Made by a program: the position numbers and the translations under genes | Part shown: positions 32,425-47,234 of the stretch, in pieces | Layout: each line of letters begins with the position of its first letter | Numbering within the stretch: the first letter of the stretch is position 1 | Virus record (IMG/VR): IMGVR_UViG_3300027765_000001 | Location: 1 to 47,234 of that record | Length of the DNA stretch: 47,234 nt | Source: a virus | Reading direction: 5' to 3' (one strand) | The notes under the pieces: model-generated | The model's input: only the letters and a program-made list of their open reading frames with translations | What the model was told of the DNA's origin: nothing | Databases searched by the model: none

Positions 32425-32443
32425 GTCCCTCCTTCGGGGATGC

Positions 32444-32470: not shown

Positions 32471-32489
32471 TCGATGTCAGTGCGGCGTG

Positions 32490-34189: not shown

Positions 34190-34197
34190 CGGCCCTC

Positions 34198-35036: not shown

Positions 35037-35241
35037 CTGCTTCCTTCCAGTGATATACGGCGTTGCCCGAGACGCCGAAGATGGCGCCGATCTCGCGCTG
35101 GCTCATGCCGGCGTCATAGGCGCGGCTGACGTGGACGTATTTGTCCAGGGTTGCGCGTTGTTCCAACTCGCCGAGCAGGCGCAGCTCTGCTGCGAGTGCC
35201 TGCCGCCGTTCGTCCGACAGGTTGGTCACCCTGCGGGGCAT
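34966..35241 (-). CDS. Helix-turn-helix DNA-binding protein
   Basis: AGMSQREIGAIFGVSGNAVYHWK is HTH-like. It is the first gene after a 410-bp structured gap. Confidence 0.55.
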   Translation of the reverse strand: MPRRVTNLSDERRQALAAELRLLGELEQRATLDKYVHVSRAYDAGMSQREIGAIFGVSGNAVYHWKEAGERERERRRSGDPERPGESEPVG

Positions 35242-35290
35242 GGTGGCTCCGGTGTGTTAGATGGACGGGGCAATCAATCCCTTGAGTCCC

Positions 35291-35651
35291 CCCCTGACCG
35301 GGGCAGATCCCAGTCAGGGGCAACCGTAGCTCACAGTTGATCTAACAAACCAGACGTGTCTTACTGTGTGAACCGAATGTAACGCGCCCTTAATGGGCCG
35401 TTCGTCGGCGCCGCAATTGCAGGCGCCTGATGGGCGGCCTCCTGGCCGCATGTGCGCCGCGCCTGCGGCGCTGGAGGCATGCCAGGCGCATATGGGTGCA
35501 CGTACCGCGCACGCCCAGCGCGCAGTCCGCCGTCAGGCGGACGTAGACCAGACCGCGCTCCCGCTCGCGCGGGAGCTGGCGGTCGTAGACCACGCCGTAC
35601 GCCACCCCCGAAGGGGTGGCGCAGCGAACCGGCGTGCCCCTGCGGGGGCAC
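35291..35651. other. Intergenic hairpin cluster
   Basis: Perfect stems at 35291-35320, 35407-35427, 35454-35471, 35525-35542, 35557-35576, 35601-35620 and 35634-35651. Confidence 0.75.
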
Positions 35652-35652
35652 C

Positions 35653-35871
35653 TCACCTCTTCTCCGCCAGGGCCTTGCCCTTGGCGCCCTTCCGGGCGGT
35701 GCCCGCCCGCGACTTGTCGCCGATCATGTGGGCAATGTCGGCGTAGCTGGCGCCGTCCTCGTGCGCCTCGTAGATGGCCATGAGAAGGGCCTCCTCGGCC
35801 CGCTGGCGGGCCTTGACGAGCCGGGCGAACTTCCCCGCCAGGGCGGCCCGCTTGTGCGGCGTGAGGCTCAT
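35653..35871 (-). CDS. Hypothetical small basic protein, possible HTH
   Basis: ATGA-coupled internal start of track ORF 35653..35973. Contains DGASYADIAHMIG. Confidence 0.45.
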   Translation of the reverse strand: MSLTPHKRAALAGKFARLVKARQRAEEALLMAIYEAHEDGASYADIAHMIGDKSRAGTARKGAKGKALAEKR

Positions 35872-36731
35872 GCAGCACCGTCCTGGAGGTCCAGGCCGGT
35901 GACCCTGGGGAGGACTTCGTCCTTCCTCCAGCGCAGCACGCCGAGCGTGACGCCGTCGGCGTAGGCGTTCCACGCCTTGACGATCAGGGCGTACGCCAGG
36001 TCGCGGCGGTTGGTGCCGCCCACGACCTGGATGCCGCTGCGGAACTTCTCGCGCAGCATCAGGCGCGGGTCACCCGCGCCCAGGTCCGTGCCGGTGTGCA
36101 GCGCCTCCAGCCAGGGCTGGATCTTGCCGATGTGCACGGTCCTGGCCGCTTGGGCCAGGACGGCCAGATGCGCCCCGATGGGGATCTTCACGGCGCCGTA
36201 CACCGTGGCCGCCTCGGTGGCGTACCAGCCGGCCTCCGGCCACGCCCGGAAGGTCTCCAGGATCTCCGGAGTGGTGATCTTCGGGTACCGCGGCATGCCC
36301 CAGCGGTCGCCGTCGGCCAGGGCCGCCAGGTGGCGGCTGGCGTTGGCGATGGACACGGCGTGCGGCACGCGCAGCACGTGCGCGGCCGTGCGCTTGTAGC
36401 CCTGGTCCACCACATCGAAGATGTCCCGGGGCTGGTCCGGAAAGATCCAGAAGGCGAAGGACTGCCCGGCGTTGGCCACCGCCTTCAGGCGGTGCTGCCC
36501 CGAGATGATGTAGCCCTCGGTGTCGAAGATCAGGCCCTCCGGAGTCAGGGCCCATCGGCCCTGCTCCATGTCGGCCTGATACTTGCCGGCCACGGACTTG
36601 GACAGCGGCCGGTTCTTCGGGTGGTTGCGGTAGCTCAGCCAGTCGCTGGCCATGTCCGGGGTGACGATCAGAATGCACGGCTGCGACGGCAGCCGGTACT
36701 TCGAGCCGGAAGGCTCCAGAGGCTCGCTCAT
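35868..36731 (-). CDS. ParB/Srx-fold (ParB N-terminal-like) nuclease domain protein
   Basis: NRPLSKSVAGKYQADMEQGRW...GYIISGQHRLKAV. ATGA-coupled internal start of track ORF 35868..37019. Confidence 0.7.
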   Translation of the reverse strand: MSEPLEPSGSKYRLPSQPCILIVTPDMASDWLSYRNHPKNRPLSKSVAGKYQADMEQGRWALTPEGLIFDTEGYIISGQHRLKAVANAGQSFAFWIFPDQPRDIFDVVDQGYKRTAAHVLRVPHAVSIANASRHLAALADGDRWGMPRYPKITTPEILETFRAWPEAGWYATEAATVYGAVKIPIGAHLAVLAQAARTVHIGKIQPWLEALHTGTDLGAGDPRLMLREKFRSGIQVVGGTNRRDLAYALIVKAWNAYADGVTLGVLRWRKDEVLPRVTGLDLQDGAA

Positions 36732-37078
36732 CGCTCGCTCGCCTCCGGCTGGGCCGCTTCGCGGCGCTGGATGATCAGCTCCCGCCAGAGGCGGTTCAGG
36801 ATGGGATAGCCGCCCTCGTGCCAGTTCTCGCCGGAGGAGTCGCCGTCGGCGTTGAAGCCGTGCAGCTCGTAGGCACGGTTGTCCAGGTCCAGCATCTCCT
36901 GGCCGGTGACGAAGTACGGCTCCTCTCCTTGACTCCCGGCGTACTGCGCCGTCATGCACGAAGTGGTGCTCTTGATGTCCAGCCTGTCCAGGTCGATGTC
37001 CTGGGCCCAGGTGGGCCACTTCTTGTCCAGCAGAGCGGCACCGCGCTGGACGCGGGCCGCGTAGTCGATCTCGTTCAT
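36728..37078 (-). CDS. Hypothetical protein (116 aa)
   Basis: ATGA-coupled internal start of track ORF 36728..37390. Confidence 0.5.
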   Translation of the reverse strand: MNEIDYAARVQRGAALLDKKWPTWAQDIDLDRLDIKSTTSCMTAQYAGSQGEEPYFVTGQEMLDLDNRAYELHGFNADGDSSGENWHEGGYPILNRLWRELIIQRREAAQPEASER

Positions 37079-37443
37079 GCCGAGACCTCCGCTCCGGTCT
37101 CGGCCGGCAGGACGCCGGCCGCGCGGGCCTTGTCCTTGAACCACTCCCAGGTACCGCACCAGTCCTCGCGGAGCGCCAGCGCGTCCAGCTCGGCCATGCT
37201 GGCCGGGAGCAGGGCCAGCACCATGCTGGCCTCCTCGGCGTGGCTCTTGGCGTTCTTGGCGATCCAGCTCACCAGGGGGTCCTTCGAGCCCTCCAGGGGC
37301 TCCAGGGCGGCCTTCAGAGCCGCCTCCTTGATGCACGCCGGGCACGTGCTCGCGTCGTGGCGGCCGTACTGCACGGGGGTCTTGTAGCACGCCTCTTCGG
37401 CGGCCTTGACGGCCGCGAGGAACTTCTCGACCTCGGGATACAT
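37075..37443 (-). CDS. Hypothetical protein (122 aa)
   Basis: The leader CGAACGGAGAGGACGGGTTC precedes the ATG. The same leader occurs at 40707. Confidence 0.55.
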   Translation of the reverse strand: MYPEVEKFLAAVKAAEEACYKTPVQYGRHDASTCPACIKEAALKAALEPLEGSKDPLVSWIAKNAKSHAEEASMVLALLPASMAELDALALREDWCGTWEWFKDKARAAGVLPAETGAEVSA

Positions 37444-37470
37444 GAACCCGTCCTCTCCGTTCGGGGGATG

Positions 37471-37509
37471 AAAAGGGGCCCCTGCTCTCTCCTGCGGAGC
37501 AGGGACCCC
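37471..37509 (-). terminator. Strand-specific intrinsic terminator downstream of the tRNA-like gene
   Basis: The 13-bp stem is fully paired only on the minus strand (one G-U pair) and is followed by UUUU. Confidence 0.7.
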
Positions 37510-37730
37510 GGCCCGCCCCCTGGCACGAGGGCGGGCTCCGATGGCCATTTGATCAAGTTCAGGCTGGCCAGACCCTTACGGCTCCTTCTGATGGATCTTG
37601 GCTAGTTGGAGCGAAACTCACCCGGACCTAGAGAGCCGAAGCCCACATCAGGCGCTGGCCGGGCCCTTCGGGGCTCACTGCTCCCCGAAGGGGGAGTCCG
37701 GCGTTCCTGCATGCGTCCATCACGGTCCGG

Positions 37731-37816
37731 TGCCTCCAGCCGGATTTGAACCGGCGACCTCGCAGACCGAGCCAGGGGCTCGGGAATGCGCGCTCTTACC
37801 TCTGAGCTATGGAGGC
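37731..37816 (-). tRNA. tRNA-like gene with canonical acceptor, D and T arms but an expanded 30-nt anticodon arm (possible Arg CCU/CCG reading)
   Basis: GCCUCCA-UA-GCUC-AGAGGUAA-GAGC-G-[CGCA-UUC-CCGAG-CCCCUGG-CUCGG-UC-UGCG]-AGGUC-GCCGG-UUCAAAU-CCGGC-UGGAGGC-A. Confidence 0.5.
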
Positions 37817-37873
37817 GCCACCTACCCGCCGCCTTCCCGCGGCGCCGTACGGTGGCAGGTCTTACGGGCGGCT

Positions 37874-38071
37874 CTAGCGCTGGCCGGAGCCGCCACATGC
37901 CTGGCAGGTCACGGACTTGGTCTTGCCGTCCGTGTCCACGTAGATGTGGCGGCCGGTGCCGCCGCAGTTCGAGCAGTTGGCCATGGAACCCTCCTTGATG
38001 CGGGCCGCGCGCTCCGCGCGGACCATCTCCATGACTCCCGCTTGCGCGGGGTCGATCCACTCCTCCGGCAT
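37874..38071 (-). CDS. Small DnaJ-type zinc-finger protein
   Basis: CSNCGGTGR...CQACGGSGQ is two CxxCxGxG repeats. GAGGAGGG SD. Confidence 0.6.
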   Translation of the reverse strand: MPEEWIDPAQAGVMEMVRAERAARIKEGSMANCSNCGGTGRHIYVDTDGKTKSVTCQACGGSGQR

Positions 38072-38092
38072 GCCTTGCCCTCCTCATGGAGA

Positions 38093-38116
38093 AGCCCCCG
38101 CCAGTCGGCGGGGGCT
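38093..38116 (-). terminator. Hairpin after the DUF397 gene
   Basis: AGCCCCCGCC-agtc-GGCGGGGGCT, a 10-bp perfect stem with a weak U-tract. Confidence 0.5.
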
Positions 38117-38136
38117 GTTGCGCTGCTCCGAGGTCG

Positions 38137-38346
38137 TCAGACCTCGAAGCCCTGGGCGAACCGGGTGAACGCGCTCCACGCGGAGCGCTCAACCAGCAGG
38201 GTGGCCCCGTCGGGGCCCTCCTTGCCGTCCTTCACGCCGACGGGGCCGGCGGCAGGACGGGCGACGTAGACGCAGTTCTCGGGGTTGCTGTAGCTGGACT
38301 TGACGAATCCGGCTCCGTTGTGGGTTCCCAGATCTTCCCTGAGCAT
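38137..38346 (-). CDS. DUF397 (BldB-like) small protein
   Basis: FVKSSYSNPENCVYVA...VGVKDGKEGPDGATLLVERSAWSAFTRF is the DUF397 signature. GAGAGGAG SD. Confidence 0.8.
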   Translation of the reverse strand: MLREDLGTHNGAGFVKSSYSNPENCVYVARPAAGPVGVKDGKEGPDGATLLVERSAWSAFTRFAQGFEV

Positions 38347-39008
38347 TCGTACAGCTCCTCTCGGATGAACTCCCGGGAGTCGCGCGTGCTGAGAGCGCGC
38401 CCGACCATGTCGGAGAACATCGCCTTCAGTCTCGTGATGTCCTCGGTGGTGATCGTATAGAAACCGCCGATCACTGTCTCCAGGTGGCCTACGGCCGGTC
38501 CGGGATCGAGTACGAACAGGCTGAACGGCTCCGCCGTGACGGGAACCGGAATGTCCTCGGGGACCACGTGGATCACGATGTTGTTCGTGTCCTCGATCAG
38601 CCACAGCAGTTGCCGCAACTGCTCGGCGTGGCTGAAGGCGTTCATCAGGGGGCGTCGGATGGCCTGTTCCCCTACCAGGAACCAGGCTGTGGACATGGAC
38701 AGCGCCTTGCGGCGCGCGAAGAACGCCTCGGACCGCATCCGGCGGTGCGTGACCAGTAGGCCGAGTTCGCCGTGCGGTATGTCCGGGGTGTGCGACTTGA
38801 TCGCGCCCGCGGTGTACGCGGGCGTCTGGAGGAGCCCCGGGATCAGTAGGGGGCTCCACGTGCGGTAGGCCATGGTGCATGCGTCCAGGTCCGCGAGGCG
38901 GTCTATCGCCTGCGCTCCGAGGCCGCCGGCCACCTGGCCGACGCCCCTTTGATCCATGGCCCTTAAGGCTTGCAGTGCGCACTTGGCGCGCATCGAGTTG
39001 TCGTTCAT
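38232..39008 (-). CDS. DUF5753 (WhiJ/Scr1-like) protein lacking the usual N-terminal XRE HTH; contains a TTA codon
   Basis: LIPGLLQTPAYTAGAI is the DUF5753 hallmark, but only 56 aa precede it. The TTA codon lies at 38964-38966. AGGAGAGGG SD. The frame runs 115 nt (38232-38346) into the DUF397 gene. Confidence 0.7.
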   Translation of the reverse strand: MNDNSMRAKCALQALRAMDQRGVGQVAGGLGAQAIDRLADLDACTMAYRTWSPLLIPGLLQTPAYTAGAIKSHTPDIPHGELGLLVTHRRMRSEAFFARRKALSMSTAWFLVGEQAIRRPLMNAFSHAEQLRQLLWLIEDTNNIVIHVVPEDIPVPVTAEPFSLFVLDPGPAVGHLETVIGGFYTITTEDITRLKAMFSDMVGRALSTRDSREFIREELYECSGKIWEPTTEPDSSSPATATPRTASTSPVLPPAPSA

Positions 39009-39034
39009 CGGCTCCCTCTCCTGAGCGTGAACCA

Positions 39035-39063
39035 ATTGTTGCGCACGGTCACGTGCGCTGTCA
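39035..39063 (-). promoter_or_regulatory. Candidate sigma70-type promoter for the DUF5753/DUF397 pair, with a palindromic spacer
   Basis: Minus strand reads CTGACA-17 nt (GCGCACGTGACCGTGCG)-AACAAT, about 27 nt upstream of the ATG. The spacer is the inverted repeat 39041-39058. Confidence 0.3.
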
Positions 39064-39429
39064 GGCCCTGCGGGCCTGATTCCCTCTCCTGATGGACGTG
39101 CACTCCCGAAGGGGTGCGCCCCGCCTCAACCCGGGAGAGGTTCGGGGAGGCGGGGCGGATCATGGCCCTGCGGGGCCAGGCAACCGCCCCTCATGGGGGC
39201 AGGGGCGGTTGACAAGCTCAGCAGAGCGGGCAGCCTGCGCACACTGTGCGCATGAAATCGGCCCATGGGGCCGCAGGATGCGGCCGGACCTCCTGTTCGT
39301 CCTCCAGGGCCTCCCTGCCCTGGTGCTCGGTCTCGCCGTCCTGAAGGACGCGCTTGGCGCTGTGCTCCTGTGTGATCATCAAGGCTCCCCTGAAGGGGGA
39401 CTGGCAATGCGCGCCCCCCTGGCGCGCAT
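39041..39429. other. Intergenic hairpin cluster
   Basis: Perfect or near-perfect stems at 39041-39058, 39061-39079, 39119-39155, 39181-39211, 39236-39252 and 39407-39429. Confidence 0.7.
39218..39379 (-). CDS. Possible small protein (53 aa) ending CAGCPLC
   Basis: GGGGAG SD followed by ATG. High GC3. However, it lies inside a hairpin-rich region and is below the track cut-off. Confidence 0.35.
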   Translation of the reverse strand: MITQEHSAKRVLQDGETEHQGREALEDEQEVRPHPAAPWADFMRTVCAGCPLC

Positions 39430-39540
39430 GTGGGGTCTGTCAGTCCAAGGGAGCCGACACCGCCCCGGGGGCGCTCACCGCGCCCCGAGGGGGGACAGCG
39501 CGGGAGCGGAGCGGTGCCGGCCGACTTGGGGTGACAGGCG

Positions 39541-39768
39541 TTAGGACCACATGAGATCGGCTACCGCCATCGGGTCCTTCCCGGCGAGCCGGCCCAGTTC
39601 TAGAAGCGTCATCCTCTTGCGTTGTGCGCCCTCCCATACCAGCCGGGGGGACGCTGCTCCGCACAGGAGTTGGATGTTCGCCTCACAGAACAGGGCCATA
39701 GCCCCGGCGTCGTCGGCGCATCCGGCGCCGACCTTGTGCGCAGCGGCGAGTGTCTGTTCGTAGTCCAT
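39541..39768 (-). CDS. Hypothetical protein (75 aa)
   Basis: TGATG-coupled start. Confidence 0.5.
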   Translation of the reverse strand: MDYEQTLAAAHKVGAGCADDAGAMALFCEANIQLLCGAASPRLVWEGAQRKRMTLLELGRLAGKDPMAVADLMWS

Positions 39769-40073
39769 CACTCACCGCCCCTCAGTGCGCCCGCGTAGCG
39801 GGTCATCTCCTCATAGCTGGGCTCGATGGGCTGGTCATCCTCGTACGGCTCCCACAGGAGCCGTACGGGCCGCTTGTGGTCGCCTCTGGCGACATCGTCG
39901 GGCACGTGGTAGCGCGTGCCGTAGTCCTCCATGGCGTCCTGGTGGTGCTCCGCGCACCACACAAGGCCCTCGGCCTTGCGCTCCGCGCAGAACTCGCTGC
40001 GCGGCATGCCGTAGGCAATCTGCCATCCGCAGATCTGCGAGCCGCGCCATGGCTCGCGGGGAAGGGTGCGCAT
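39768..40073 (-). CDS. Hypothetical protein (101 aa)
   Basis: TGATG-coupled internal start of track ORF 39768..40169. Confidence 0.5.
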   Translation of the reverse strand: MRTLPREPWRGSQICGWQIAYGMPRSEFCAERKAEGLVWCAEHHQDAMEDYGTRYHVPDDVARGDHKRPVRLLWEPYEDDQPIEPSYEEMTRYAGALRGGE

Positions 40074-40447
40074 CACTTCACCCTCCGGTAGCGCCGGAAG
40101 CCGTTCGCGGGGCGACCCAGCAGGGCCGATGCAGCTTCCATGAAGCCGTCGAACCCTCCCCGCCCCCACGTACCCGGGGGGCGGTCGTCCTTAAGTGGCC
40201 GCACAAGACGGCGGTCGTTGGGGGCGTACATTCCGTCACACTCGTACGCGAACCACTGGCCCTCGGCCTCTAGGAGTACTCCACACTCGAAGCCGTCGAA
40301 CCGACCTTCGAGCCACGGATACACCTTCCATTCGTTGTCACGCTCCGAGTAGACGCAGCAGGCCGCGGGGTTCGTCACGGTGAAAGTGTGGTTCGCGGTC
40401 CCGATCTTGCCGACCGCCTCAATCTCCAGATAGTCAGCGGTGGCCAT
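40073..40447 (-). CDS. Hypothetical protein (124 aa)
   Basis: TGATG-coupled start. Confidence 0.5.
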   Translation of the reverse strand: MATADYLEIEAVGKIGTANHTFTVTNPAACCVYSERDNEWKVYPWLEGRFDGFECGVLLEAEGQWFAYECDGMYAPNDRRLVRPLKDDRPPGTWGRGGFDGFMEAASALLGRPANGFRRYRRVK

Positions 40448-40707
40448 CACTCGCCGCCCGTGCTCTCAAGGGCGATGATGTCGCACCCCGGCCGGCCGGG
40501 CCGGTTCGGGATCCACGTGATCGCGAGGGGCCGCCCCTTGCGGTCCTCGCCGGTCCACTGGTGAACCACGTCTTCGCGGTACTCCGCCGCGATGACGTAG
40601 GCGCGGTGGACCGTGGCGCTGACCTTCTGCGTGGTGAACGCGCCGCCGCTGCCGCGCCCCTCGATGCGGTAGAGCGTGATTCCACGCTCTCGCGTAAGGT
40701 TGCCCAT
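40447..40707 (-). CDS. Hypothetical protein (86 aa)
   Basis: The leader CGAACGGAGAGGACGGAATC precedes the ATG. Internal start of track ORF 40447..40788. Confidence 0.5.
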   Translation of the reverse strand: MGNLTRERGITLYRIEGRGSGGAFTTQKVSATVHRAYVIAAEYREDVVHQWTGEDRKGRPLAITWIPNRPGRPGCDIIALESTGGE

Positions 40708-40737
40708 GATTCCGTCCTCTCCGTTCGGGATCACCAA

Positions 40738-40767
40738 GAAGCCCCGGGGTGGCACCCCCGGGGCTTC
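40738..40767 (-). terminator. 12-bp hairpin GAAGCCCCGGGG/CCCCGGGGCTTC
   Basis: Read directly. It lies between palindrome copy A and the next SD. Confidence 0.5.
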
Positions 40768-40768
40768 G

Positions 40769-40784
40769 CCTTGCGACTGCAAGG
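40769..40784. promoter_or_regulatory. Conserved 16-bp palindrome CCTTGCGACTGCAAGG, copy A
   Basis: Identical to 41140-41155. 41490-41506 has a one-base insertion. Each copy sits next to a variable long hairpin. Confidence 0.6.
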
Positions 40785-40830
40785 CCAACAGGCCGTACGT
40801 GCGAGACGTACGGCCGATGGCCCGGCAGGG

Positions 40831-41112
40831 TCAGTCAGGGACCTTCGTACCGTCCGCGTAGCGGCCGGACTTGAAGCGACGCACTCCGGCATCCCACCCC
40901 TTGTTGTAGTGGGGGAGCAGAGGAGGTGTCGGGTAGCGCCGGTTCAGGATCCATGAGGGACACATGCGGCGGCGCGGACCAGGCTCTCCGGGGGCAGGCT
41001 TTTCTTCCTCGCCATAAGCGTCCACGTAGTTCGCGTGGTCCCATCCGCGCTCCGCGCCAACGTCGTACGCGCGCTGTTGCTCCTCCGTGCGCTCGGATGT
41101 GTTCTCAGGCAT
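40831..41112 (-). CDS. Hypothetical protein (93 aa)
   Basis: The leader AATGATCAAGTAGGAGAGGACCTGATC precedes the ATG. Confidence 0.5.
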   Translation of the reverse strand: MPENTSERTEEQQRAYDVGAERGWDHANYVDAYGEEEKPAPGEPGPRRRMCPSWILNRRYPTPPLLPHYNKGWDAGVRRFKSGRYADGTKVPD

Positions 41113-41139
41113 GATCAGGTCCTCTCCTACTTGATCATT

Positions 41140-41155
41140 CCTTGCGACTGCAAGG
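41140..41155. promoter_or_regulatory. Conserved 16-bp palindrome, copy B
   Basis: Read directly. It is flanked by the 13-bp hairpin 41162-41190. Confidence 0.6.
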
Positions 41156-41205
41156 CCAACAGGCAAGACGTGCGTTACGCACGTCTTGCCGATGGTCCGG
41201 CAGGG

Positions 41206-41463
41206 TCACTCAGCCGCGAGACTCGCGGCGATGTCTTGCCAGTCGATCCGATCGAAGTCGGCCCGCGAGATCTGGTAACGCGTGCCCTTGACGGCCTCAT
41301 CAGTGGACGTCCAGAACCACTTCGCCACCCAGTCCCGCAGGGTGGCGCCGGTCTCGTCACGCTGGGCCAGCTCCCGGCCCTCGAAATACAGCTCGTACGT
41401 GTTCTCCAAGAGCAGGGACACGCTGTGCGTTGCCCAGTCCTGGCCGTTGAAGGTCTCGCTCAT
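41206..41463 (-). CDS. Hypothetical protein (85 aa)
   Basis: It has the same 30-nt leader as 41112. Confidence 0.5.
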   Translation of the reverse strand: MSETFNGQDWATHSVSLLLENTYELYFEGRELAQRDETGATLRDWVAKWFWTSTDEAVKGTRYQISRADFDRIDWQDIAASLAAE

Positions 41464-41489
41464 GATCAGGTCCTCTCCTACTTGATCAT

Positions 41490-41506
41490 CCTTGCGGACT
41501 GCAAGG
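41490..41506. promoter_or_regulatory. Conserved palindrome, copy C (CCTTGCGGACTGCAAGG)
   Basis: Read directly. It is flanked by the 11-bp hairpin 41513-41537. Confidence 0.6.
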
Positions 41507-41552
41507 TCAAGGGGGTCACGGTCGGAGACCGTGACCCGATGACCGTACAGGC

Positions 41553-41657
41553 TCATTCCTCGCTGTCGTCATCGTTCTCGGCCGGCTCCGCCGGCTCAGG
41601 CTCCGGGAGCCCCGGCAGGGGCTCGAACATCCCCGCCAGGGGGTGATCCCAGAGCAT
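41553..41657 (-). CDS. Possible acidic peptide (34 aa)
   Basis: TGATG coupling. High GC3. Ends ...EPEPAEPAENDDDSEE. Confidence 0.3.
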   Translation of the reverse strand: MLWDHPLAGMFEPLPGLPEPEPAEPAENDDDSEE

Positions 41658-42067
41658 CAGAACTCCGACTCTTCCGGGTCGGAACACCAGCACGTGTCCA
41701 GTGCGCCATCCTCGTGCGCGTAGTCGTAGTCCACGTGCTTCGGAACCCACATGTCCGACCATCCGGGCACGCGGTCCGTGTCGCCGGACCGCACGCGGTC
41801 GTCCACGTACGCGCGGAGCGCGGCGAGCGCGCTCGCGTTCTCCGCGAGCGTTGCACTGTCCGCCCCTCGGGCGAACGAAGACATCAGGTACTCGCCGTCG
41901 CCCTCGTGAATCGTGCCGGTTGAAACGAACGAGTAGTTCGCCGTGTCGCCACCGTCGTTGAACCATGAGGCGATGGTGCGCGCGGTCCCGTGGTCGATCT
42001 CTTCGCCTTCACCCAGCGCGCTGATCGCGCGGGCAACGGCAGTGTCGTCACTCTCGTAACGGATCAT
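41657..42067 (-). CDS. Hypothetical acidic protein (136 aa)
   Basis: TAGGAGAGG SD. Internal start of track ORF 41657..42244. Confidence 0.5.
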   Translation of the reverse strand: MIRYESDDTAVARAISALGEGEEIDHGTARTIASWFNDGGDTANYSFVSTGTIHEGDGEYLMSSFARGADSATLAENASALAALRAYVDDRVRSGDTDRVPGWSDMWVPKHVDYDYAHEDGALDTCWCSDPEESEF

Positions 42068-42176
42068 GTCCCGTCCTCTCCTAAACGGCTCATGTGGTCC
42101 CCCGGTGGCACCCGGGGGATGGTCCGTAGGACCGACAGAGGGCACCTGCAAGAGGTGCCCTCGACTGTCCGGCGGA

Positions 42177-42503
42177 TCAGCGTCCGGTGATGCGTGAGTA
42201 GATCTCGCGCTCTTCCTCGGGCGTGAAACCCGAGAGGTGCGCACTCACGTCGCACCGCTCTCCGGTGTAGTTGTTGGACTGGAAGTTGCCGGAGTACCAC
42301 GTGTGCCCGACCTGAAGATCGGGATAACTGGACGGCTCGGTGCATCCCTCGGTGTCGATCAGGTCGGCGGCCCACTCGGCCACGGGGCCGTCGTCCACTT
42401 CGTGGGTGTGCTCGCTCGGGAAGGGCTTGCGCCCCCCGATGATCTCGCCGTCGGCGATCTGCTCGGGCTTGTAGTAGTGCTTGTAGATCGTGATCGTTGC
42501 CAT
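42177..42503 (-). CDS. Hypothetical protein (108 aa)
   Basis: TAGGAGAGG SD. Internal start of track ORF 42177..42668. Confidence 0.5.
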   Translation of the reverse strand: MATITIYKHYYKPEQIADGEIIGGRKPFPSEHTHEVDDGPVAEWAADLIDTEGCTEPSSYPDLQVGHTWYSGNFQSNNYTGERCDVSAHLSGFTPEEEREIYSRITGR

Positions 42504-42606
42504 GACCAGTCCTCTCCTACTGCTCATGTGGCCCGGGGATGGCACTCCCCGGACGGTCTGTACGACCGACAGGGCCCACGGATGTAACGCCGTGGGCCCG
42601 ACTGCC

Positions 42607-42768
42607 TTACAGGCCAAGAACGCGCCCCAGAAGGGCGCGTAGGGCCGCGTACGGATGCCTGCGGGCATCCGCCCGGCGCTCCCGCCGGAAGTCGGCGGGA
42701 GTCATCGCGCGATAGCGCGCGGCTGCGACCGCTATCGCGCGGTCAAGCTGCTCGGGGACCATGGTCAC
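42607..42768 (-). CDS. Hypothetical basic protein (53 aa)
   Basis: GTGA-coupled start inside track ORF 42607..42819. Confidence 0.4.
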   Translation of the reverse strand: MTMVPEQLDRAIAVAAARYRAMTPADFRRERRADARRHPYAALRALLGRVLGL

Positions 42769-42884
42769 GCGTCCCAGTGCCGGTACTCGGACCGGTGGAC
42801 GTAGGCCGTGCGCTCCCACGTGCCATCGACGTTGAACACGTCGATGCGCGTGCAGATCTGTCCGTACATGATCTCGTAACTCAT
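42765..42884 (-). CDS. Hypothetical peptide (39 aa)
   Basis: CAGGAGAGG SD followed by ATG. Confidence 0.4.
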   Translation of the reverse strand: MSYEIMYGQICTRIDVFNVDGTWERTAYVHRSEYRHWDA

Positions 42885-42990
42885 GATCAGCCTCTCCTGT
42901 CGATCGTGACTACTCATCAGGCAGGCAGGGACACGGCGCACTGCCAGGGTTATCACCTCGTGGCTCACCTGGTGTTACGTGCTGGTGTGC

Positions 42991-43018
42991 CCCTGCCCGC
43001 TTGACGAGACAGGGCCGG
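42991..43018. repeat. 28-bp direct repeat CCCTGCC(C/T)(G/C)(C/T)TTGACGAGACAGGGCCGG, copy 1
   Basis: 25/28 identical to 43330-43357. It overlaps terminator hairpin 43010-43032. Confidence 0.7.
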
Positions 43019-43032
43019 TTGCGCCGGCCCTG
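43010..43032 (-). terminator. Hairpin CAGGGCCGG-ttgcg-CCGGCCCTG after the first early gene
   Basis: 9-bp perfect stem located 8 nt after the stop at 43040. Confidence 0.5.
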
Positions 43033-43039
43033 CAACGTC

Positions 43040-43213
43040 TCAGAGGTACCGCGACGTTACGTCGCGGTTGTCCGCGTCGCGGACCACGATGTTCCACATC
43101 TGGCCCGTGCGCAGGTTGTCCAGGTACCCCAATCCATCCTTGCGGAAGTAGGGCGCGTTCACCGGCACGCTGTGCGCTCCGGTGTCGTCAATCCATGTCA
43201 CCGTTATGTCCAT
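43040..43213 (-). CDS. First early-block gene, hypothetical (57 aa)
   Basis: CAGGAGAGG SD followed by ATG at 43213. High GC3. Below the track cut-off. Confidence 0.5.
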   Translation of the reverse strand: MDITVTWIDDTGAHSVPVNAPYFRKDGLGYLDNLRTGQMWNIVVRDADNRDVTSRYL

Positions 43214-43230
43214 GTGCAGTCCTCTCCTGA

Positions 43231-43252
43231 CTGTCTCGTCAGAGAGGCAGGG
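43231..43252. repeat. Inverted copy (21/22) of 43330-43351, abutting the SD of the first early gene
   Basis: CTGTCTCGTCAGAGAGGCAGGG compared with the reverse complement CTGTCTCGTCAAAGAGGCAGGG. Confidence 0.7.
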
Positions 43253-43329
43253 AAGTCCGGTAAGCGCACGGGCAACCGCTTGACGCGGTTGCGGAACGAA
43301 CTCCGGGCATGCCGCCCGTACTGGGGCTG

Positions 43330-43357
43330 CCCTGCCTCTTTGACGAGACAGGGCCGG
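43330..43357. repeat. 28-bp direct repeat, copy 2
   Basis: See 42991-43018. Confidence 0.7.
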
Positions 43358-43700
43358 CGGTCCGGGCGCGTGGCGGGACGGTGGTGCGCTGTCCTCTCGC
43401 GCCGGCAGCGCCGGCCCTGCTCAGTCTGTGTGTCCGCACCTCTCGGAGTGATGCGGTACTCCCATCGCATCCAATGGGGGATGCGACTGTCCGTCCTATC
43501 CGTGACCGGTCATTGCGGGATGTCTGCCCCGCTCGGGAATCACGTCTCAGTGCCTAGCACTCACGCGCCTACGGAGTTCGTTCTCCCTGCGCACGTGGAC
43601 TCGCTGTGGGTTGTTCGCACCGGGTCGGTTCGAGCCGAAGGGCTCCATCCGCCACCCCTGCGATCCGGCCTCTCGGCCGGTCCTCCGTGGTGCTGAGACG

Positions 43701-43737
43701 ACTCTAGTGATTGATAGGTCTGTGTGACATAGGTCTG
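43701..43737. promoter_or_regulatory. AT-richest segment of the window, with two ATAGGTCTG direct repeats (43714-43722, 43729-43737) and a minus-strand TAGAGT box (43701-43706)
   Basis: Read directly. The promoter/operator or origin role is inference. Confidence 0.3.
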
Positions 43738-43923
43738 ACCGTAAAGCGATTGCAAAGAGTGTGGATCATGGGGCTGAGATGGTGAAGATCTCGTGAAAAC
43801 CACAGGTCGTGACACCTCGTGAGGCGGGAGCCTCTGGCCACGTGCGGCGCCATCGGCGCTCGCATCCGTAGATCCATGTGCGGTTCCGATGCCTCAAAGG
43901 GCACCGGATGCCCTGTCCGGGCG

Positions 43924-44911
43924 CGCGGTCTTGCACCGCGTGCCGCGGTGTGCCTCTCCCCGCGTAGAACGGGGAGGGTTCATGCACCCTCTAGCGCCCC
44001 CTGAAGCCCCGTCAAGGGGTCGAACGGGGGCGGTTGGCCCAGTGGGGCACGGGACGGCCCAAAGGCCGTCAGAACGGCGTACAGCGCTTCCGGAACGGGA
44101 GTTCCGGCATCACGGCCGGCAAGGCACCGCGCAAGCGGTGATCGGCCGGCGAAGCCTCGCGCGCGCGTACGCGCGAAGAGGGCCGCTCGCCAGAGCGGCC
44201 CGACTGTCGCCTTCAGGCGACCACTTGCGTCCTCACGCCGGACGGCGTGAGGGATCGGCCGCGAACGAGCAGCCTGCCTCGCAGGCTGTCTCGGGAGCGG
44301 TCAGTGATCGAAGATCACTTCCCGCACTGTGCCGCCGTAGGCGGCACGGGTGAGCTGTGCGGAGCACAGCGAACGCAAGCGCGATGACCACATCGAAGAT
44401 GTGGCATCGCATGATCCACACGCACAGAGAGCCGGCCTGTTGGCCGGCTCAGTGGTGTGCACCTGGTGGTGCACACACAGTGTGTGGTGCCTGGTGGCAC
44501 CACACCATGGGGCGACTGGACACCCCCTCAGGCACATAGTGCCTGGTCAGAGGGGGTGGACTGTCGCTCACGCTCCAGTCCAGGGCCTTGTCTCATTGTG
44601 CGCCGTATGGCGCACATTGTCCGATTCTGTCTCTCTTTGGCGCCGAAGGCGCCAGTTTGACCCCGGGGTTTTAAAACCCCGGGCCCTGGACTGGACTGGT
44701 CCGCCCCTGGCGGTGCGTCCCAGACCCCTTAGGAGAGCGCCGAGGGGCGCTCTCAGGGATTTGCGCCTGAAGGCGCATCTGGGCGGCCCCGACAGCCCCG
44801 AGGGGCCGCCACTGTCGCGCGTATGCGCGTGGCGCCATTCAACATAAGGTCAGCAAGTCGTGTCGTCAAGTCTCACCCTCCACTTGAGGGAGGTCGGGGG
44901 TCAGTGACCCC
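43924..44911. other. Dense array of about 25 unrelated GC-rich hairpins in non-coding DNA
   Basis: Coordinates of the individual perfect stems are listed in the first finding. No frame has coding-type GC3. Confidence 0.85.
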
Positions 44912-44927
44912 GCGCTAATCTCGGGAC

Positions 44928-45110
44928 ATGTCCACGTACGTCAAGTCCCCTGACCCGGTCGAGCCGTTGGTGAAGGTCGCGGTCTACATGTACCCGACGG
45001 AGCGCCAGAGGGTCCGTGAGCAGGCGTCCCGCCGCGGGATGGCCATGAGCGAGTACATCAAGTTCCTCATCGAGCGGGACCACCGCGGAACCCTGGACGG
45101 CCGGCCGTGA
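44928..45110 (+). CDS. Ribbon-helix-helix DNA-binding protein (regulator or small-terminase-like role possible)
   Basis: VKVAVYMYPTERQRVREQASRRGMAMSEYIKFLIERD shows a beta-alpha-alpha RHH pattern. High GC3. It is the first rightward gene. Confidence 0.55.
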   Translation: MSTYVKSPDPVEPLVKVAVYMYPTERQRVREQASRRGMAMSEYIKFLIERDHRGTLDGRP

Positions 45111-45328
45111 AGGCCCGCTTCAAGAACGAGTGCTTCATCTGCTACCGGACGATCTACCCGGGTTCCACGATCCGGAAGTCCCGTTCCGGAAAGTTCGTCC
45201 ACGACGAATGCGGTAAGGCCGCCGAGGCCAAGGCGGCCATTACAGCCGGGATCACCTTCCGGGCTCAGCAGCCGTCGTACTGGCGGGTTGGCCGCTCACC
45301 TTCGAGTCGTCGCAATCGCAGGGATTAG
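45107..45328 (+). CDS. Small Zn-ribbon-like protein
   Basis: GTGA coupling. Contains CFIC...HDEC. Confidence 0.5.
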   Translation: MKARFKNECFICYRTIYPGSTIRKSRSGKFVHDECGKAAEAKAAITAGITFRAQQPSYWRVGRSPSSRRNRRD

Positions 45329-45357
45329 ACCTGCGATTGCGCGCCGCCTTCGCGGCG
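45311..45357 (+). other. 12-bp perfect stem-loop enclosing the stop codon (45311-45341) plus a second hairpin (45342-45357)
   Basis: CGCAATCGCAGG-gattaga-CCTGCGATTGCG, followed by CGCCGC-cttc-GCGGCG. Confidence 0.7.
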
Positions 45358-45397
45358 CTGCCTGGGATTCTCGGGACTCGTCCCCGGAGCCGTACAC

Positions 45398-45419
45398 TGC
45401 TAGCACCAAAGTGCTAGCA
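45398..45419 (+). promoter_or_regulatory. Paired TGCTAGCA palindromes 14 nt upstream of the terL start
   Basis: Copies at 45398-45405 and 45412-45419, in the same 14-bp register as at 1399-1419. Confidence 0.5.
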
Positions 45420-45432
45420 GTCGGGGGGTGCA

Positions 45433-47234
45433 GTGGCCCACAGGATCGTCGGAGGGCAGTCGCCCTCCAGGGACCGCCGTCGCAGCATCGAGTCCTCCGC
45501 GCACGCGAAGGACATCATCCTGGCGGGCATACGCTCCGGGATGACGATCCGCCGGGCCTGTGAGGCCGCGGATCGCGTGGAGTCCACGTACGCCTACTAC
45601 CGCAAGCAGGACCCGAACTTCCGCAAGCTGGCGGACGCCGCGCTCCAGGCGCGGGCGGAGGGCTACAAGCCCGGCCAGGTGCCGGTGCCGGACTTCCCCG
45701 AGTTCTGCGAGAGGTACCTGAACACCAAGCTGTTCTGGCATCACCTCCAGTGGGTGGACTTGCTGGACGGCAGGGAGCCGCGCGACCTGCATCCCTCCCA
45801 GCGCTACGTCCGCGGGGACGCGGACCAGATCCTGGTGAACACCCCGCCCGAGCACGCGAAGTCGACCACGCTGACGGTCAACTACGTGACGTGGCGGATC
45901 GTCTGCGATCCGAACGTCCGGATCCTGGTGATCTCCAAGACGCAGGACATGGCGAAGAAGTTCCTGGTGGCGATCAAGGATCGCCTGGCGGAGAACGAGG
46001 CGTACGCGCAGCTTCAGGCGGACTTCGGTCCGCCGGGCGGCTTCGCCGAAGGCGCGGCCCGCTGGGCCGCGGACGCCATCTACGTGGCCGGCCGGGACTC
46101 CGGCGAGAAGGACCCGACGGTTCAGGCCGTCGGCATCAAGGGGCACATCTACGGCTCCCGCTGTGATCTGGCGATCATGGATGACTGTGTGGACCACACC
46201 AACCACCAGGACTTCGAGAAGCAGATCGACTGGATCCAGAACCAGGTGGGCTCCCGTGTGGCCGACTCCGGCGGCCGGATGCTGCTGATCGGCACCCGCA
46301 TGGAGACCACGGACCTGTACTCCGAGATCCTGAAGCCGGCGTACTACATCGAGGGGCAGTCGCCCTGGACGTACCTGACGCAGCCGGCCGTCCTGGAGTA
46401 CGCGGACGACCCGAAGGACTGGAAGACCCTGTGGCCGGTCACCAACCGGCCTCCGGTCTCCATCTCGGGCCGCAAGGCCGCGGAGGCGGCCGGCTGGCCC
46501 AGGGATGACATGTGGCCGATGTGGCACGGCGAGGCGCTGTCCGCCAAGCGCCGCAAGATGCGGGCGCGGAACTGGTCGATGGTCTACATGCAGGACCAGG
46601 TGGCCGATGACGCGATCTTCAAGCAGGAGGACGTTCAGGGCTGCGTGGACAAGGCCCGCTACCCGGGCCGCCTGATGGACGGTCAGTCCGGGCACCGCAA
46701 GTACGGCATGGACGGCGTGACCGTCATCGCCGGCCTGGACCCGGCCGCCGCCGGGTACACGGCGATCGTGGTTCTGGCGCTGGACCGCCAGACCGGGGTC
46801 CGGTGGCTAGTGGAGGTCGTCAACCGCCGGGCGCTTCCTCCGCACGAGCTGCGTGCGGAGATGAAGCGGATCACCGAGCGGTACGGCGTCACGGAGTGGC
46901 GCGTGGAGAAGAACGCCTATCAGGCGTCGATCATCCAGGACCGCGAGGTCCGGGAGTTCATGAACTCCCGCGGTGTGCTGCTGTCCGGGCATCACACGAA
47001 CTCCAACAAGTGGGATCCCGACTTCGGCGTGGCCTCGATGGCCACGCTGTTCGACGGTTGGCGCGAGGGGCGCAACCTGATCCGTCTGCCGTCGCAGACG
47101 CAGTCCGAGCCCGTCAGGGCTCTGGTGGAACAGCTCTGCGCCTGGTTCCCGGAGACCAAGGGCCTGACCGACACGGTCATGGCCCTGTGGTTCGCGGAGA
47201 TCCGCTGCCGCGAACTGATGGTCTCCGACCTCAG
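45433..47234 (+). CDS. terL: Terminase large subunit (continues at 1-266; 646 aa in total)
   Basis: GTG follows GGGGGG and an in-frame TAG at 45415. The ATPase region has NTPPEHAKST and CDLAIMDD. The frame is open to the end of the window, so it is missing from the ORF track. Confidence 0.9.
   Translation, partial: MAHRIVGGQSPSRDRRRSIESSAHAKDIILAGIRSGMTIRRACEAADRVESTYAYYRKQDPNFRKLADAALQARAEGYKPGQVPVPDFPEFCERYLNTKLFWHHLQWVDLLDGREPRDLHPSQRYVRGDADQILVNTPPEHAKSTTLTVNYVTWRIVCDPNVRILVISKTQDMAKKFLVAIKDRLAENEAYAQLQADFGPPGGFAEGAARWAADAIYVAGRDSGEKDPTVQAVGIKGHIYGSRCDLAIMDDCVDHTNHQDFEKQIDWIQNQVGSRVADSGGRMLLIGTRMETTDLYSEILKPAYYIEGQSPWTYLTQPAVLEYADDPKDWKTLWPVTNRPPVSISGRKAAEAAGWPRDDMWPMWHGEALSAKRRKMRARNWSMVYMQDQVADDAIFKQEDVQGCVDKARYPGRLMDGQSGHRKYGMDGVTVIAGLDPAAAGYTAIVVLALDRQTGVRWLVEVVNRRALPPHELRAEMKRITERYGVTEWRVEKNAYQASIIQDREVREFMNSRGVLLSGHHTNSNKWDPDFGVASMATLFDGWREGRNLIRLPSQTQSEPVRALVEQLCAWFPETKGLTDTVMALWFAEIRCRELMVSDL
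47108..47234. repeat. Terminal direct repeat, copy 2
   Basis: Identical to 1-127. Confidence 0.95.

Follow-up and report, generated by a model that had tools for sequence, protein, structure and literature searches.

The window, a stretch of 47,234 nucleotides from an IMG/VR virus record, is the complete, circularly assembled genome (~47.1 kb) of a temperate Streptomyces podophage; its first 127 nt are a copy of its last 127 nt. It encodes a serine integrase and a DUF5753/XRE regulator; a primase, a DnaB-like helicase, and a PD-(D/E)XK nuclease; and, in the virion module, a giant protein of 1635 aa. No antiterminator or sigma factor was recognised among the phage genes, GC skew was uninformative for locating the origin, and the only Rfam gathering-score match in the window is a tRNA at 37731-37816. 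A near-identity search of the region among cultured phages (megablast, 50,697 phage records) gave no match, and the closest cultured phages were reached only by a terminase protein search. The cultured relative Abafar, reported to be virulent (PMC11536984), has in common with the window the primase, helicase, exonuclease, giant protein, and a terminal-repeat motif, and its major capsid protein is annotated as N4-type.

Between the leftward and rightward gene blocks, adjoining the terminase, lies an array of hairpins (Table 1). An earlier note on this DNA had placed it correctly and had found no coding-type ORF beside it; we likewise found none in 43214-44927. Because the genome is a circular assembly, the genome ends also meet in this region, which the note called an early/late control region. 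The array is flanked by promoter-like and conserved elements. The leftward promoter has a similar site at equal distance from the motif in locus L005; its -10 element is conserved in L047 and L013, and its -35 element in L013 (TTGCGA in L047). The AT-rich segment contains direct repeats of ATAGGTCTG (43714-43722 and 43729-43737) and is a candidate divergent promoter/operator region; a search left of the array yielded no rightward consensus promoter. The block at 43506-43626, a candidate leader element of the leftward operon, shows 81-88% identity in L007, L010, and L026 and no differences in L095.

Smaller versions of the array had been proposed at three further places, one of which is real. 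The mini-array at 35291-35651 separates two same-strand small HTH-like genes (35653-35871 and 34966-35241), which is a terminator or insulator position at a transcription-unit boundary in the lysogeny region. The other two did not hold up: 37445-37730 overlaps a gene (37075-37548), stops 1 nt short of the tRNA, and has no perfect hairpin of at least 7 bp in its non-coding part, and 39041-39429 has only three hairpins. An ARAGORN "tRNA-Pyl" at 43915-44001 on the minus strand lacked Rfam support and was treated as a false positive caused by hairpins.

Table 1. Features of the array, its surroundings, and the mini-array (window coordinates).
Feature	Position	Strand	Remarks
Mini-array, ~8 hairpins	35291..35651	-	z = -5.6
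Second conserved block	43506..43626	.	two small conserved hairpins
Only AT-rich segment	43700..43819	.	GC 0.48-0.51; just left of array
Hairpin array	43924..44911	.	25 perfect hairpins, unrelated in sequence; 6-11 bp stems, most loops 3-4 nt, C-G almost always the closing pair
Left block	43934..44505	+	17 hairpins; bulk of C-GNA-G / C-GNNA-G + strand loops
Conserved core	44525..44735	+	nested hairpin, conserved GGACTGTCGCTCACG, P1 stem, then 3' hairpin
P1 5' arm	44574..44587	+	TCCAGTCCAGGGCC
Universal motif	44657..44683	+	TTGACCCCGGGG-TTTTAAAA-CCCCGGG; clade consensus TGACCCC-N-GG-TGTTAAA
P1 3' arm	44682..44695	+	GGCCCTGGACTGGA
Right block	44733..44911	+	5 hairpins, between core and first rightward gene
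Sigma-70-like promoter	44841..44869	-	TTGACG-17-TATGTT; reads leftward into array
First rightward gene	44928..45110	+	60 aa; weak ribbon-helix-helix (NikA-like) match under Pfam cut-off
Conserved 11-bp hairpin	45396..45421	+	ACTGCTAGCAC-CAAA-GTGCTAGCAGT; directly upstream of terminase RBS; sequence kept
Terminase large subunit	45433..47234, continuing at 1-266	+	127-nt end repeat

Density and composition of the hairpins

All 25 hairpins reported earlier were found, 24 of them exactly in place and one within 1 nt; perfect inverted repeats reach 6 bp or more in every interval and 7 bp or more in 24 of the 25. The hairpins are mutually unlike, as had been claimed: the array contains no repeat family, only weak two-copy matches (76-93% identity), and Tandem Repeats Finder returned nothing relevant. 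CRISPR, REP/BIME, and iteron arrays are excluded, there being no unit with a shared consensus. A structured RNA of Rfam type was also rejected, since no family matched at gathering or permissive thresholds; E-values up to 1 gave two chance-level matches only in 43200-45000. The literature searched likewise contained no description of such arrays, in agreement with the earlier note, which knew of no counterpart.

Raw sliding MFE is confounded by GC content, and we therefore used shuffle-normalised folding, a check that the earlier note had proposed. The array folds 14-25 SD better than dinucleotide shuffles: as RNA, at -611.7 kcal/mol on the + strand and -594.9 on the - strand (z = -13.9 and -23.2), and as DNA at z = -13.9 and -25.2, with the neighbouring 43214-43923 at z = -4.8 only. 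The hairpin count was 37 by a method in which some hairpins are scored repeatedly, with alternative loop sizes, versus a mean of 0.84 and a maximum of 6 in 1000 dinucleotide shuffles. Genome-wide, the 300-nt windows over the array rank first and second of 157 in excess folding energy (-52.6 and -42.6; genome mean -14.0, sd 8.1). No other part of the genome is as structured.

The stems are strictly Watson-Crick, and 53 one-mismatch hairpins show no asymmetry (G.T 12, A.C 12). The closing pair is C-G in 272:28 cases in arrays (~10:1) versus 369:267 in coding DNA. Loops differ between strands (+ versus -: GNRA 11:0, GNA 33:14, all sheared-GA 60:21, p = 1.7e-5), the sheared-GA type comprising only 60 of the 272 C-G-closed tri- and tetraloops (22%). 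On the + strand, C-G-closed GNA loops number 33 against 7.7 expected and GNNA loops 27 against 7.6, a roughly four-fold enrichment whatever the middle base, and the - strand is near expectation. GNA triloops dominate, and GNYA loops (16) are at least as common as GNRA (11). Ordinary terminator-position hairpins of these genomes have this GNA/GNNA-type bias in 0 of 27 cases; the extra C-G closure and the plus-strand loop bias are specific to the arrays. Canonical intrinsic (L-shaped) terminators were rejected, as no such U-tract site occurs in 42900-45500 and T-rich tails (5 or more T among the following 8 nt) follow only 7 of 511 array hairpins across the clade; the exceptions cluster on the + strand. 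A scan tool placed T-tailed hairpins in eight arrays at 9 on + and 2 on -, and L009 has 3-5 tandem T-tailed + strand hairpins between core and terminase. These biases point to the + strand, which has the sense of rightward transcripts.

The loops recall phage N4, which uses short hairpins of this kind as promoters (PMC4496689): the would-be template strand for leftward early transcription carries C-GAA-G and C-GGA-G triloops, Abafar has an N4-type major capsid protein, and the 1635-aa protein of the virion module could be a virion RNA polymerase acting on hairpins extruded from a supercoiled, first-injected end. We consider such promoters highly improbable. Neither alone nor as a 14-sequence profile did the giant protein match an RNA polymerase in Pfam or among PDB sequences, its PHROG is of unknown function, and it also occurs in arrayless relatives, with no correlation with arrays. 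The 511 hairpins have no strong positional consensus around them and none of the N4 flanking bases (-11, -10, -8, +1), and no genes lie between the hairpins.

Conservation, turnover, and the genome-wide hairpin excess

Every relative with a terminase large subunit (TerL) identity of at least ~64% has 11-26 perfect hairpins in the densest kilobase upstream of the terminase, with 2-5 hairpins/kb elsewhere in the same loci; relatives at or below 53%, cultured virulent ones included, have no array. Size and position are similar across TerL identities of 64-85%. The array tracks the terminase module and not any early gene; adjacent early genes were rejected as partners, not being conserved across the clade. 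In near-identical genomes the hairpins are rewritten as multi-base units and yet stay hairpins: in L095/L096, 18 of 18 changed orthologous hairpins remain stable hairpins, and one new hairpin came in as a 22-nt insertion. These comparisons use hairpin-level energies, as per-pair compensation counts are confounded by register shifts. The array architecture is conserved clade-wide, a point that the earlier note had proposed to check in related phages, while hairpin sequences change fast.

The core shows covariation. Its fold is four-way-junction-like: P1, a long-range inverted repeat, encloses two variable hairpins plus the universal motif and so brackets TGACCCC..TGTTAA. Tabulated directly locus by locus, P1 is perfect over 11-20 bp in 34 of 36 loci, in 28 distinct sequences whose pairs are Watson-Crick in 437 cases, G.T in one, and other in four. 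Compensatory change, one of the signs suggested earlier, is massive, but G-U intermediates are nearly absent and wobble is not strand-specific. A trans-acting long structured ncRNA, or an RNA or DNA decoy (for example one that titrates a host nuclease or defence protein), would draw on this core and on the extreme predicted structure of both strands. It is very unlikely: the rest of the array consists only of simple local hairpins whose sequences are arbitrary and change fast, without conserved loops, tertiary motifs, wobble pairs, or an Rfam match, and the motif is conserved as sequence even in relatives where it is not a hairpin. The nuclease or RNase decoy suggested in the earlier note found no support.

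The motif is present in 35 of 35 clade loci that extend far enough upstream; it precedes TerL by 456-1133 nt in 34 loci and by 2416 nt in L047. As GACCCGGGGGTTGTTAA, at 44658 in the window, it also lies in direct terminal repeats (DTRs) of cultured phages, at 225 in WRightOn (DTR 264 bp) and at 216 and 43524 in Abafar (DTR 396 bp). Twelve partial contigs begin 30-441 nt upstream of the motif and none within the bulk of the array, the complete clade assemblies being circularly closed or cut at arbitrary places. From this sequence evidence we infer that the core is the packaging/terminal-repeat site of the phage, and the left block would then adjoin, on its inner side, the right end of the virion DNA. 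A serine-integrase attP was rejected as array, core, and terminase are contiguous in L005, L007, and L008, whose loci sit within Streptomyces contigs of 136-580 kb, and the integrase gene lies 10 kb from the array. Clade members occur as prophages of Streptomyces composti SBST2-5, S. hoynatensis KCTC 29097, and S. himalayensis PSKA28.

The coding DNA of the genome holds 209 perfect hairpins versus 39.4 +/- 5.5 in synonymous shuffles, a 5.3-fold excess (5.9/kb versus 1.1/kb) seen in almost every gene listed. Shuffles are thus the wrong background for the array, which at ~20 hairpins/kb stands at 3-4 times the raised level of its own genome and not at 15-20 times; the excess over chance estimated in the earlier note was real, its background wrong. 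The coding excess is a family trait (2.5-5.8x; 5.8x in Abafar) that is absent from phiC31 (0.7x). It is strand-symmetric, and therefore acts at the DNA level; positional conservation of hairpins is 29% at 73-76% identity and falls to chance in Abafar. The array is the extreme of this genome-wide and family-wide excess, itself undescribed. Single template-switching events are known to generate perfect stems and to keep them perfect (PMC8794818), and template-switch correction of inverted repeats, operating family-wide, probably supplies and rewrites the perfect hairpins, coding DNA included.

The same bias, as template-switch or quasi-palindrome correction, might have overgrown a dispensable spacer, leaving a mutational by-product in which only the core and promoters are functional. 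The family-wide, strand-symmetric coding excess is consistent with this, as are the turnover of hairpins and the multi-base rewriting with its insertion hairpin, for which template switching is a precedent. We nevertheless find it quite unlikely, as Abafar combines its coding excess with ~1.7 kb of hairpin-poor right-end non-coding DNA, phages rarely keep 1 kb of useless DNA and the array persists across the clade's TerL range, and the closing-pair and loop biases are array-specific. Alternatively, though this too is unlikely, the family may be under genome-wide selection for DNA hairpins, not mutation bias alone, with an important single-stranded phase of its DNA. With no greater confidence, the hairpins could then be structure-based signals for priming, SSB/RecA exclusion, or host-defence evasion; by analogy, and just as speculatively, the temperate clade's terminal kilobase might be a mini-hairpin zone by the terminal repeat, a counterpart of Streptomyces fold-back telomeres.

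Candidate functions of the array

Two explanations lead, both among the roles listed in the earlier note, which made no choice between its candidates. That note had missed the circular junction, the terminal-repeat core, the clade-wide architecture, and the genome-wide excess. We tentatively favour a tandem hairpin transcription barrier, or structured leader, before the late operon and built around the packaging/terminal-repeat site. The array would consist of 20 or more stable hairpins in series, selected for structure and free in sequence, with a late operon of the small RHH gene, terminase, endolysin, and virion genes downstream. Circularisation or integration would join the genome ends, so that the AT-rich region and the late operon would face each other across the array. 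RNA polymerase going rightward would meet a long run of individually weak terminators without U-tracts, and leftward polymerase from the conserved promoter (44869->44841) would meet the same series. Their combined effect may keep lysis and packaging genes silent in the lysogen, and the late genes would then depend on antitermination or on a promoter at the right-hand side of the array.

A barrier is suggested by the architecture kept in every clade member while sequences are replaced; by lifestyle, the array being found in the temperate clade and absent from distant relatives including cultured virulent ones; by hairpin clusters of the same style at the lysogeny-region boundary; by the + strand polarity of loops and T-tails; by the promoter-like sites that flank the array; and by the precedents of phiC31 terminators without poly-U and of hairpin clusters acting as terminators (PMC8355165). 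Several observations count against it. T-rich tails are rare, and in vitro mycobacterial RNA polymerase requires a U-tract (PMC3993855); described terminator clusters average 3 hairpins (PMC8355165), far below the at least 20 here; the stems lack the wobble that one-strand RNA selection predicts; the dominance of GNA triloops follows the DNA mini-hairpin rule (PMC13037366); terminator-position hairpins do not share the loop bias; and neither a rightward promoter left of the array nor an antiterminator or sigma factor was recognised. Compared with phiC31-type hairpin clusters, the array fits in stability and in lacking U-tracts but not in place, which for such clusters is just past a stop codon: it precedes the rightward genes, and on its other side the nearest leftward gene presents its 5' end, with the start codon 700-1700 nt away. 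The mini-array does fit that position.

The main rival, possible though somewhat unlikely, is a single-stranded-DNA element, in which + strand mini-hairpins would act when the region is single-stranded. The + strand would be the lagging-strand template of a rightward fork and, where replication is incomplete or the 5' end is resected, also the 3' tail of the right genome end. There the hairpins might exclude SSB or RecA, resist nucleases, or give start signals to a DnaG-type primase, with P1 plus the motif as an end-processing/packaging site. The strictly Watson-Crick stems, the skewed C-G closure, and the strand-symmetric, DNA-level excess all favour such an element, and the + strand GNA/GNNA loops match the mini-hairpin rule, as at the G4 origin, RSF1010 ssiA, and N4 promoters (PMC13037366). 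So do the core motif in terminal repeats of relatives, the contig starts upstream of it, the tracking of the terminase module instead of early genes, and the primase, helicase, and nuclease of the phage. Against this, virulent relatives have the coding hairpin excess, the terminal-repeat motif, and the genes for replication and packaging in common with the clade but no array, and the GNRA and T-tail ratios on the + strand are more RNA-like.

A tandem barrier would offer high-GC actinomycetes a natural transcriptional insulator, very strong and diverse in sequence and of use in Streptomyces engineering, as well as a test bed for the disputed termination of actinobacterial polymerase at hairpins without U-tracts. 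A single-stranded-DNA element would be a new kind of phage cis-element, with structure read instead of sequence. Either way, a non-coding architecture persists while its sequence is replaced one hairpin at a time, and a five-fold excess of perfect hairpins in coding DNA extends through a whole phage family, including the cultured Abafar, and can be tested in the laboratory now.

Comparison with known systems

The Streptomyces phage phiC31 has rho-independent terminators without poly-U, as cited by later papers (Ingham, Hunter & Smith 1995, cited in PMC8355165, PMC3993855). These terminators and hairpin clusters resemble the array in their GC-rich perfect hairpins, short loops, and lack of a U-tract, in the host, in that several hairpins can act jointly, and in that the same style recurs at intergenic boundaries of the present genome. 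Described clusters have ~3 hairpins at most ~80 nt from the stop codon (PMC8355165), as against at least 20 over 1 kb. The array further differs in lying between divergent blocks with no gene upstream, and in its packaging-site core and DNA-type loops.

In lambda, the pR'-tR' barrier is relieved by Q, and the late transcript crosses cos into the terminase genes. Both phages are temperate, with the terminase just past the genome-end site and late transcription across joined ends, which in lambda passes a silencing terminator. Lambda relies on a single main terminator with a known antiterminator; in the present phage neither a Q-like gene nor a qut-like site was recognised.

Mini-hairpin DNA, d(GCGNAGC)/d(GCGNNAGC), shares with the array short stems and C-G-closed GNA/GNNA loops enriched on one strand, and is tied to phage regions where replication or early transcription starts (PMC13037366, PMC4496689). 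Those systems have 1-3 conserved hairpins with a defined enzyme, whereas the array has dozens, unconserved, with 60 of 272 loops of this type and without conserved enzyme-recognised flanking or stem bases.

In the telomeres of Streptomyces linear replicons, multiple closely packed palindromes fold within the 3' overhang and have purine loops of 3 nt. The array shares the host genus, the dense short GC-rich palindromes, the C-GNA-G-type loops, and a 3'-ending strand near a DNA end. Telomere palindromes are sequence-conserved, occupy ~170-300 nt at the very end, and work with Tap and Tpg, whereas genes for Tap and Tpg were not seen in the phage and the array is internal to the terminal repeat.

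The T7 concatemer junction and terminal-repeat region and the T5 injection-stop region contain a few specific inverted repeats. By description they resemble the array in having podophage DTRs, inverted repeats and promoters beside the repeat, and non-coding DNA at the early-gene end; here, a kilobase of unrelated hairpins takes the place of those few repeats. REP/BIME, CRISPR, iterons, and integron attC are also palindromic and non-coding, but their units share a consensus, and the array has no unit family. The DTR region of Beephvirinae-like podophages has the same motif as the core, within a terminal repeat that precedes the terminase by a few hundred nt.

Genome layout and the non-coding gap

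The first 127 nt of the window are identical to its last 127 nt (1-127 and 47108-47234), a circular-assembly signature, and this phage is represented by four independent assemblies from metagenomes (47.1-47.2 kb) that are cut at arbitrary places. It follows that the window represents a complete genome, ~47,107 bp long and circularly assembled, opened within the terminase gene, which spans the junction and ends at 266. The closest cultured phages are the Streptomyces podophages of Beephvirinae/Manuelvirus (WRightOn, Abafar), at ~54% terminase identity. Coding-type ORFs are absent from the 1.7-kb gap at 43214-44927.

Several other features accompany this layout. A 1635-aa virion-module protein (4457-9364) is family-wide at 30-71% identity, with no Pfam or PDB-sequence match and a PHROG without known function; a 220-aa protein (30311-30973) partially matches C5 cytosine DNA-methyltransferases, in its N-terminal part only. 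A tRNA gene at 37731-37816 (- strand) scores 54 bits with Rfam, is of unusual length (86-88 nt), and received no anticodon from ARAGORN. The early leftward region also holds several direct repeats of 50-75 nt and 77-94% identity, scattered close to small genes.

Features of the genome, the gap and the array core (window coordinates)
Feature	Position	Description
Rightward genes	1-23300	virion genes
Leftward genes	23413-43213	primase, DnaB-like helicase, PD-(D/E)XK nuclease, WhiB-like and HTH proteins, DUF5753/XRE regulator, serine integrase
Early-region direct repeat pair	40769-40838/41140-41213	
Early-region direct repeat pair	41110-41159/41461-41510	
Early-region direct repeat pair	42065-42138/42501-42572	
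Conserved non-coding block	43506-43626	two small conserved hairpins, GCGGG..CCCGC and AGTGC..GCACT
Direct repeat ATAGGTCTG	43714-43722 and 43729-43737	2 copies, 15 nt apart
Core	44525-44735	conserved block within the array
P1 stem	44574-44587 paired with 44682-44695	centre of core
Motif	44657-44683	TGACCCC-N-GG-TGTTAAA
Genes right of gap		in order: 60-aa RHH-like gene, 73-aa zinc-finger-like gene, terminase
11-bp hairpin	45396-45421	ACTGCTAGCAC-CAAA-GTGCTAGCAGT, directly 5' of terminase RBS

The conserved non-coding block, which has 81-88% identity in L007, L010 and L026 and zero differences in the near-identical assembly L095, gave no Rfam match and may serve the leftward operon as a leader element. 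The gap has a single AT-rich stretch; the direct repeat falls within it and looks like an operator. The hairpin before the terminase is kept in sequence as well as structure in four relatives (L013, L015, L043 and L021).

The hairpin array and its conserved core

An earlier note had described 25 perfect hairpins at 43924-44911, far beyond chance and belonging to no repeat family. All 25 are present, we detected no repeat family among them, and the excess is borne out: the 988-nt array folds 14-25 SD more stably than dinucleotide shuffles, for both strands and under RNA as well as DNA parameters, contains 37 hairpin matches against 0.84 in shuffles, and supplies the two 300-nt windows ranked first and second of 157 genome-wide for excess folding energy. 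Neither an Rfam search of the array region nor megablast with it against 50,697 phage records returned a match. ARAGORN called a “tRNA-Pyl (cta)” inside the array (43915-44001, - strand); Rfam gives it no support, and it is probably a false positive.

Terminase-anchored searches yielded eight bacterial-genome loci and 80 viral contigs. Where terminase identity is at least ~64% and the sequence extends far enough upstream, all relatives show the array: the hairpin-richest kilobase ahead of the terminase has 11-26 perfect hairpins, and the rest of the locus 2-5 per kb. The order is constant: after the last leftward gene come 600-900 nt poor in hairpins, then ~1 kb of dense array and the terminase. 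The array is a conserved architecture. It was found in no relative at ≤53% terminase identity, nor in cultured Beephvirinae; Abafar, which lacks it, is reported to be virulent (PMC11536984). Three array-bearing loci sit within Streptomyces contigs of 136-580 kb, and are therefore integrated prophages.

Aligning the closest relatives exposed the core, which a covariance model recovered in more distant members of this temperate, array-bearing clade. The motif and one or two variable hairpins lie inside its long-range stem, P1. The two arms of this stem form a perfect inverted repeat of 11-20 bp in 34 of 36 loci, and 28 different sequences are seen; the pairs comprise 437 Watson-Crick, one G.T and four further mismatches. 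The motif was found in all 35 clade loci having enough upstream sequence, lying 456-1133 nt upstream of terminase in 34. In WRightOn and Abafar, whose direct terminal repeats were defined by experiment, the same 17-mer lies inside the repeat, at position 225 of 264 in WRightOn and at 216 of 396 in Abafar (again at 43524), and 12 partial metagenomic contigs begin 30-441 nt upstream of the motif, with none beginning in the array bulk. We infer from these sequence comparisons that the terminal-repeat/packaging region lies at the core; the bulk of the array would then fall immediately inside the virion DNA's right end, ahead of the early genes, and would join the late operon contiguously only upon circularisation or integration. 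In the S. hoynatensis member (L009) the core (9263-9439) is AT-rich (GC 0.43), and on its minus strand the motif's TGTTAA supplies the -35 (TTAACA) of a good promoter match, TTAACA-18-CATAAT.

Hairpin turnover and origin

Three assemblies match the window in the array region save for one base (44749 in L093), while L095 and L096 show ~96% identity across aligned segments including the array. In these two, array stems differ from the window by 8-11%, loops by 15-17% and spacers by 10-13%, against 1.9-3.3% at third-codon positions of adjacent genes and 1.2% in the left non-coding stretch, although we do not claim faster-than-neutral evolution because codon bias (GC3 ~0.93) probably depresses the synonymous rate used as comparison. 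The changes are clustered: 15 of 24 hairpins are unchanged in L095, and the rest are rewritten as units. Structure is conserved among relatives both in P1 and in the changed orthologous hairpins, 18 of 18 of which remain stable with similar energy (for example, CCACATC-GAA-GATGTGG to CCTCACC-GGA-GGTGAGG). Structure is retained; sequence is free. A 22-nt insertion in L095 after window position 44153 (GCCATGGCCTGCGTAACGCAGG) is itself a new hairpin, which shows that arrays can grow through added hairpin units.

Hairpins are also in excess outside the array. Perfect hairpins of at least 7 bp number 6.7 per kb in the window and 0.6 per kb in phiC31, which has similar GC content. The window's coding DNA contains 209 against 39.4 +/- 5.5 when synonymous codons are shuffled within genes, with the excess seen in almost every listed gene on both arms. 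The coding excess, tabulated for the whole window, L003 (Abafar), L005, L009, L021, L045, L057 and L065, is 5.8-fold in Abafar, 2.5-5.3-fold in clade members, 3.1-4.3-fold in 50-52% relatives and 1.8-fold in one 38% relative, and is absent in phiC31 (0.7 of synonymous shuffles). It is strand-symmetric, and the hairpins turn over: at 73-76% nucleotide identity 29% of them keep their position (7-9% expected by chance), and in Abafar conservation is at chance level. Template-switch mutation, which makes and keeps perfect stems in single events (PMC8794818), is the simplest source of this coding excess. That the array, too, is purely a mutational by-product seems improbable: since Abafar has the same coding excess but few hairpins in its non-coding ends, the array looks selected rather than merely overgrown.

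Strand signals and possible roles

Loop and closing-pair statistics were taken over 511 distinct array hairpins. Tri- and tetraloops are closed by C-G in 272 cases and G-C in 28 (369:267 in coding DNA). One-mismatch hairpins are rare (53), and G.T and A.C are equally frequent among them (12 each), which argues against selection on one RNA strand. It is what one would expect of pairing at the DNA level, of a role in both transcripts, or of upkeep through template switching. We give little weight to a trans-acting RNA or decoy.

Sheared G.A-closed loops (GNA, GNNA) are enriched four-fold on the + strand only (60:21, p = 1.7e-5), a bias that keeps its direction across the core; GNYA is at least as frequent as GNRA there (16 vs 11). 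This loop pattern is the mini-hairpin DNA rule (PMC13037366), although GNRA loops, at 11:0 on the + strand (the sense of late-operon transcription), are also RNA-like. Terminator-position hairpins of the ordinary kind in these genomes do not share the GNA/GNNA bias (0 of 27). N4-type promoters are a very improbable explanation. The main rival is a zone of single-stranded-DNA mini-hairpins that would serve replication or the processing of ends; its support comes from stems free of wobble pairs, from DNA-type loops and from the tie to the terminal repeat, and we regard it as unlikely, though less so than the other alternatives. The array is limited to the temperate clade, though virulent relatives share the replication and packaging genes.

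That distribution favours instead, tentatively and at somewhat short of even chances, a tandem transcription barrier or structured leader ahead of the late operon, built around the packaging site, in which successive hairpins would block transcription or form the leader. The polarity signals point to the + strand: besides the loop bias, T-rich tails, though rare (7 of 511 hairpins), favour it 9:2 in a scan of eight arrays, and the AT-richer L009 has 3-5 consecutive T-tailed + strand hairpins between core and terminase. A barrier or leader is also favoured by a mini-array occupying a transcription-unit boundary in the lysogeny region, by promoter-like sites on both array flanks, and by the precedent of phiC31, which has terminators without U-tracts according to the passages citing them in PMC8355165 and PMC3993855.
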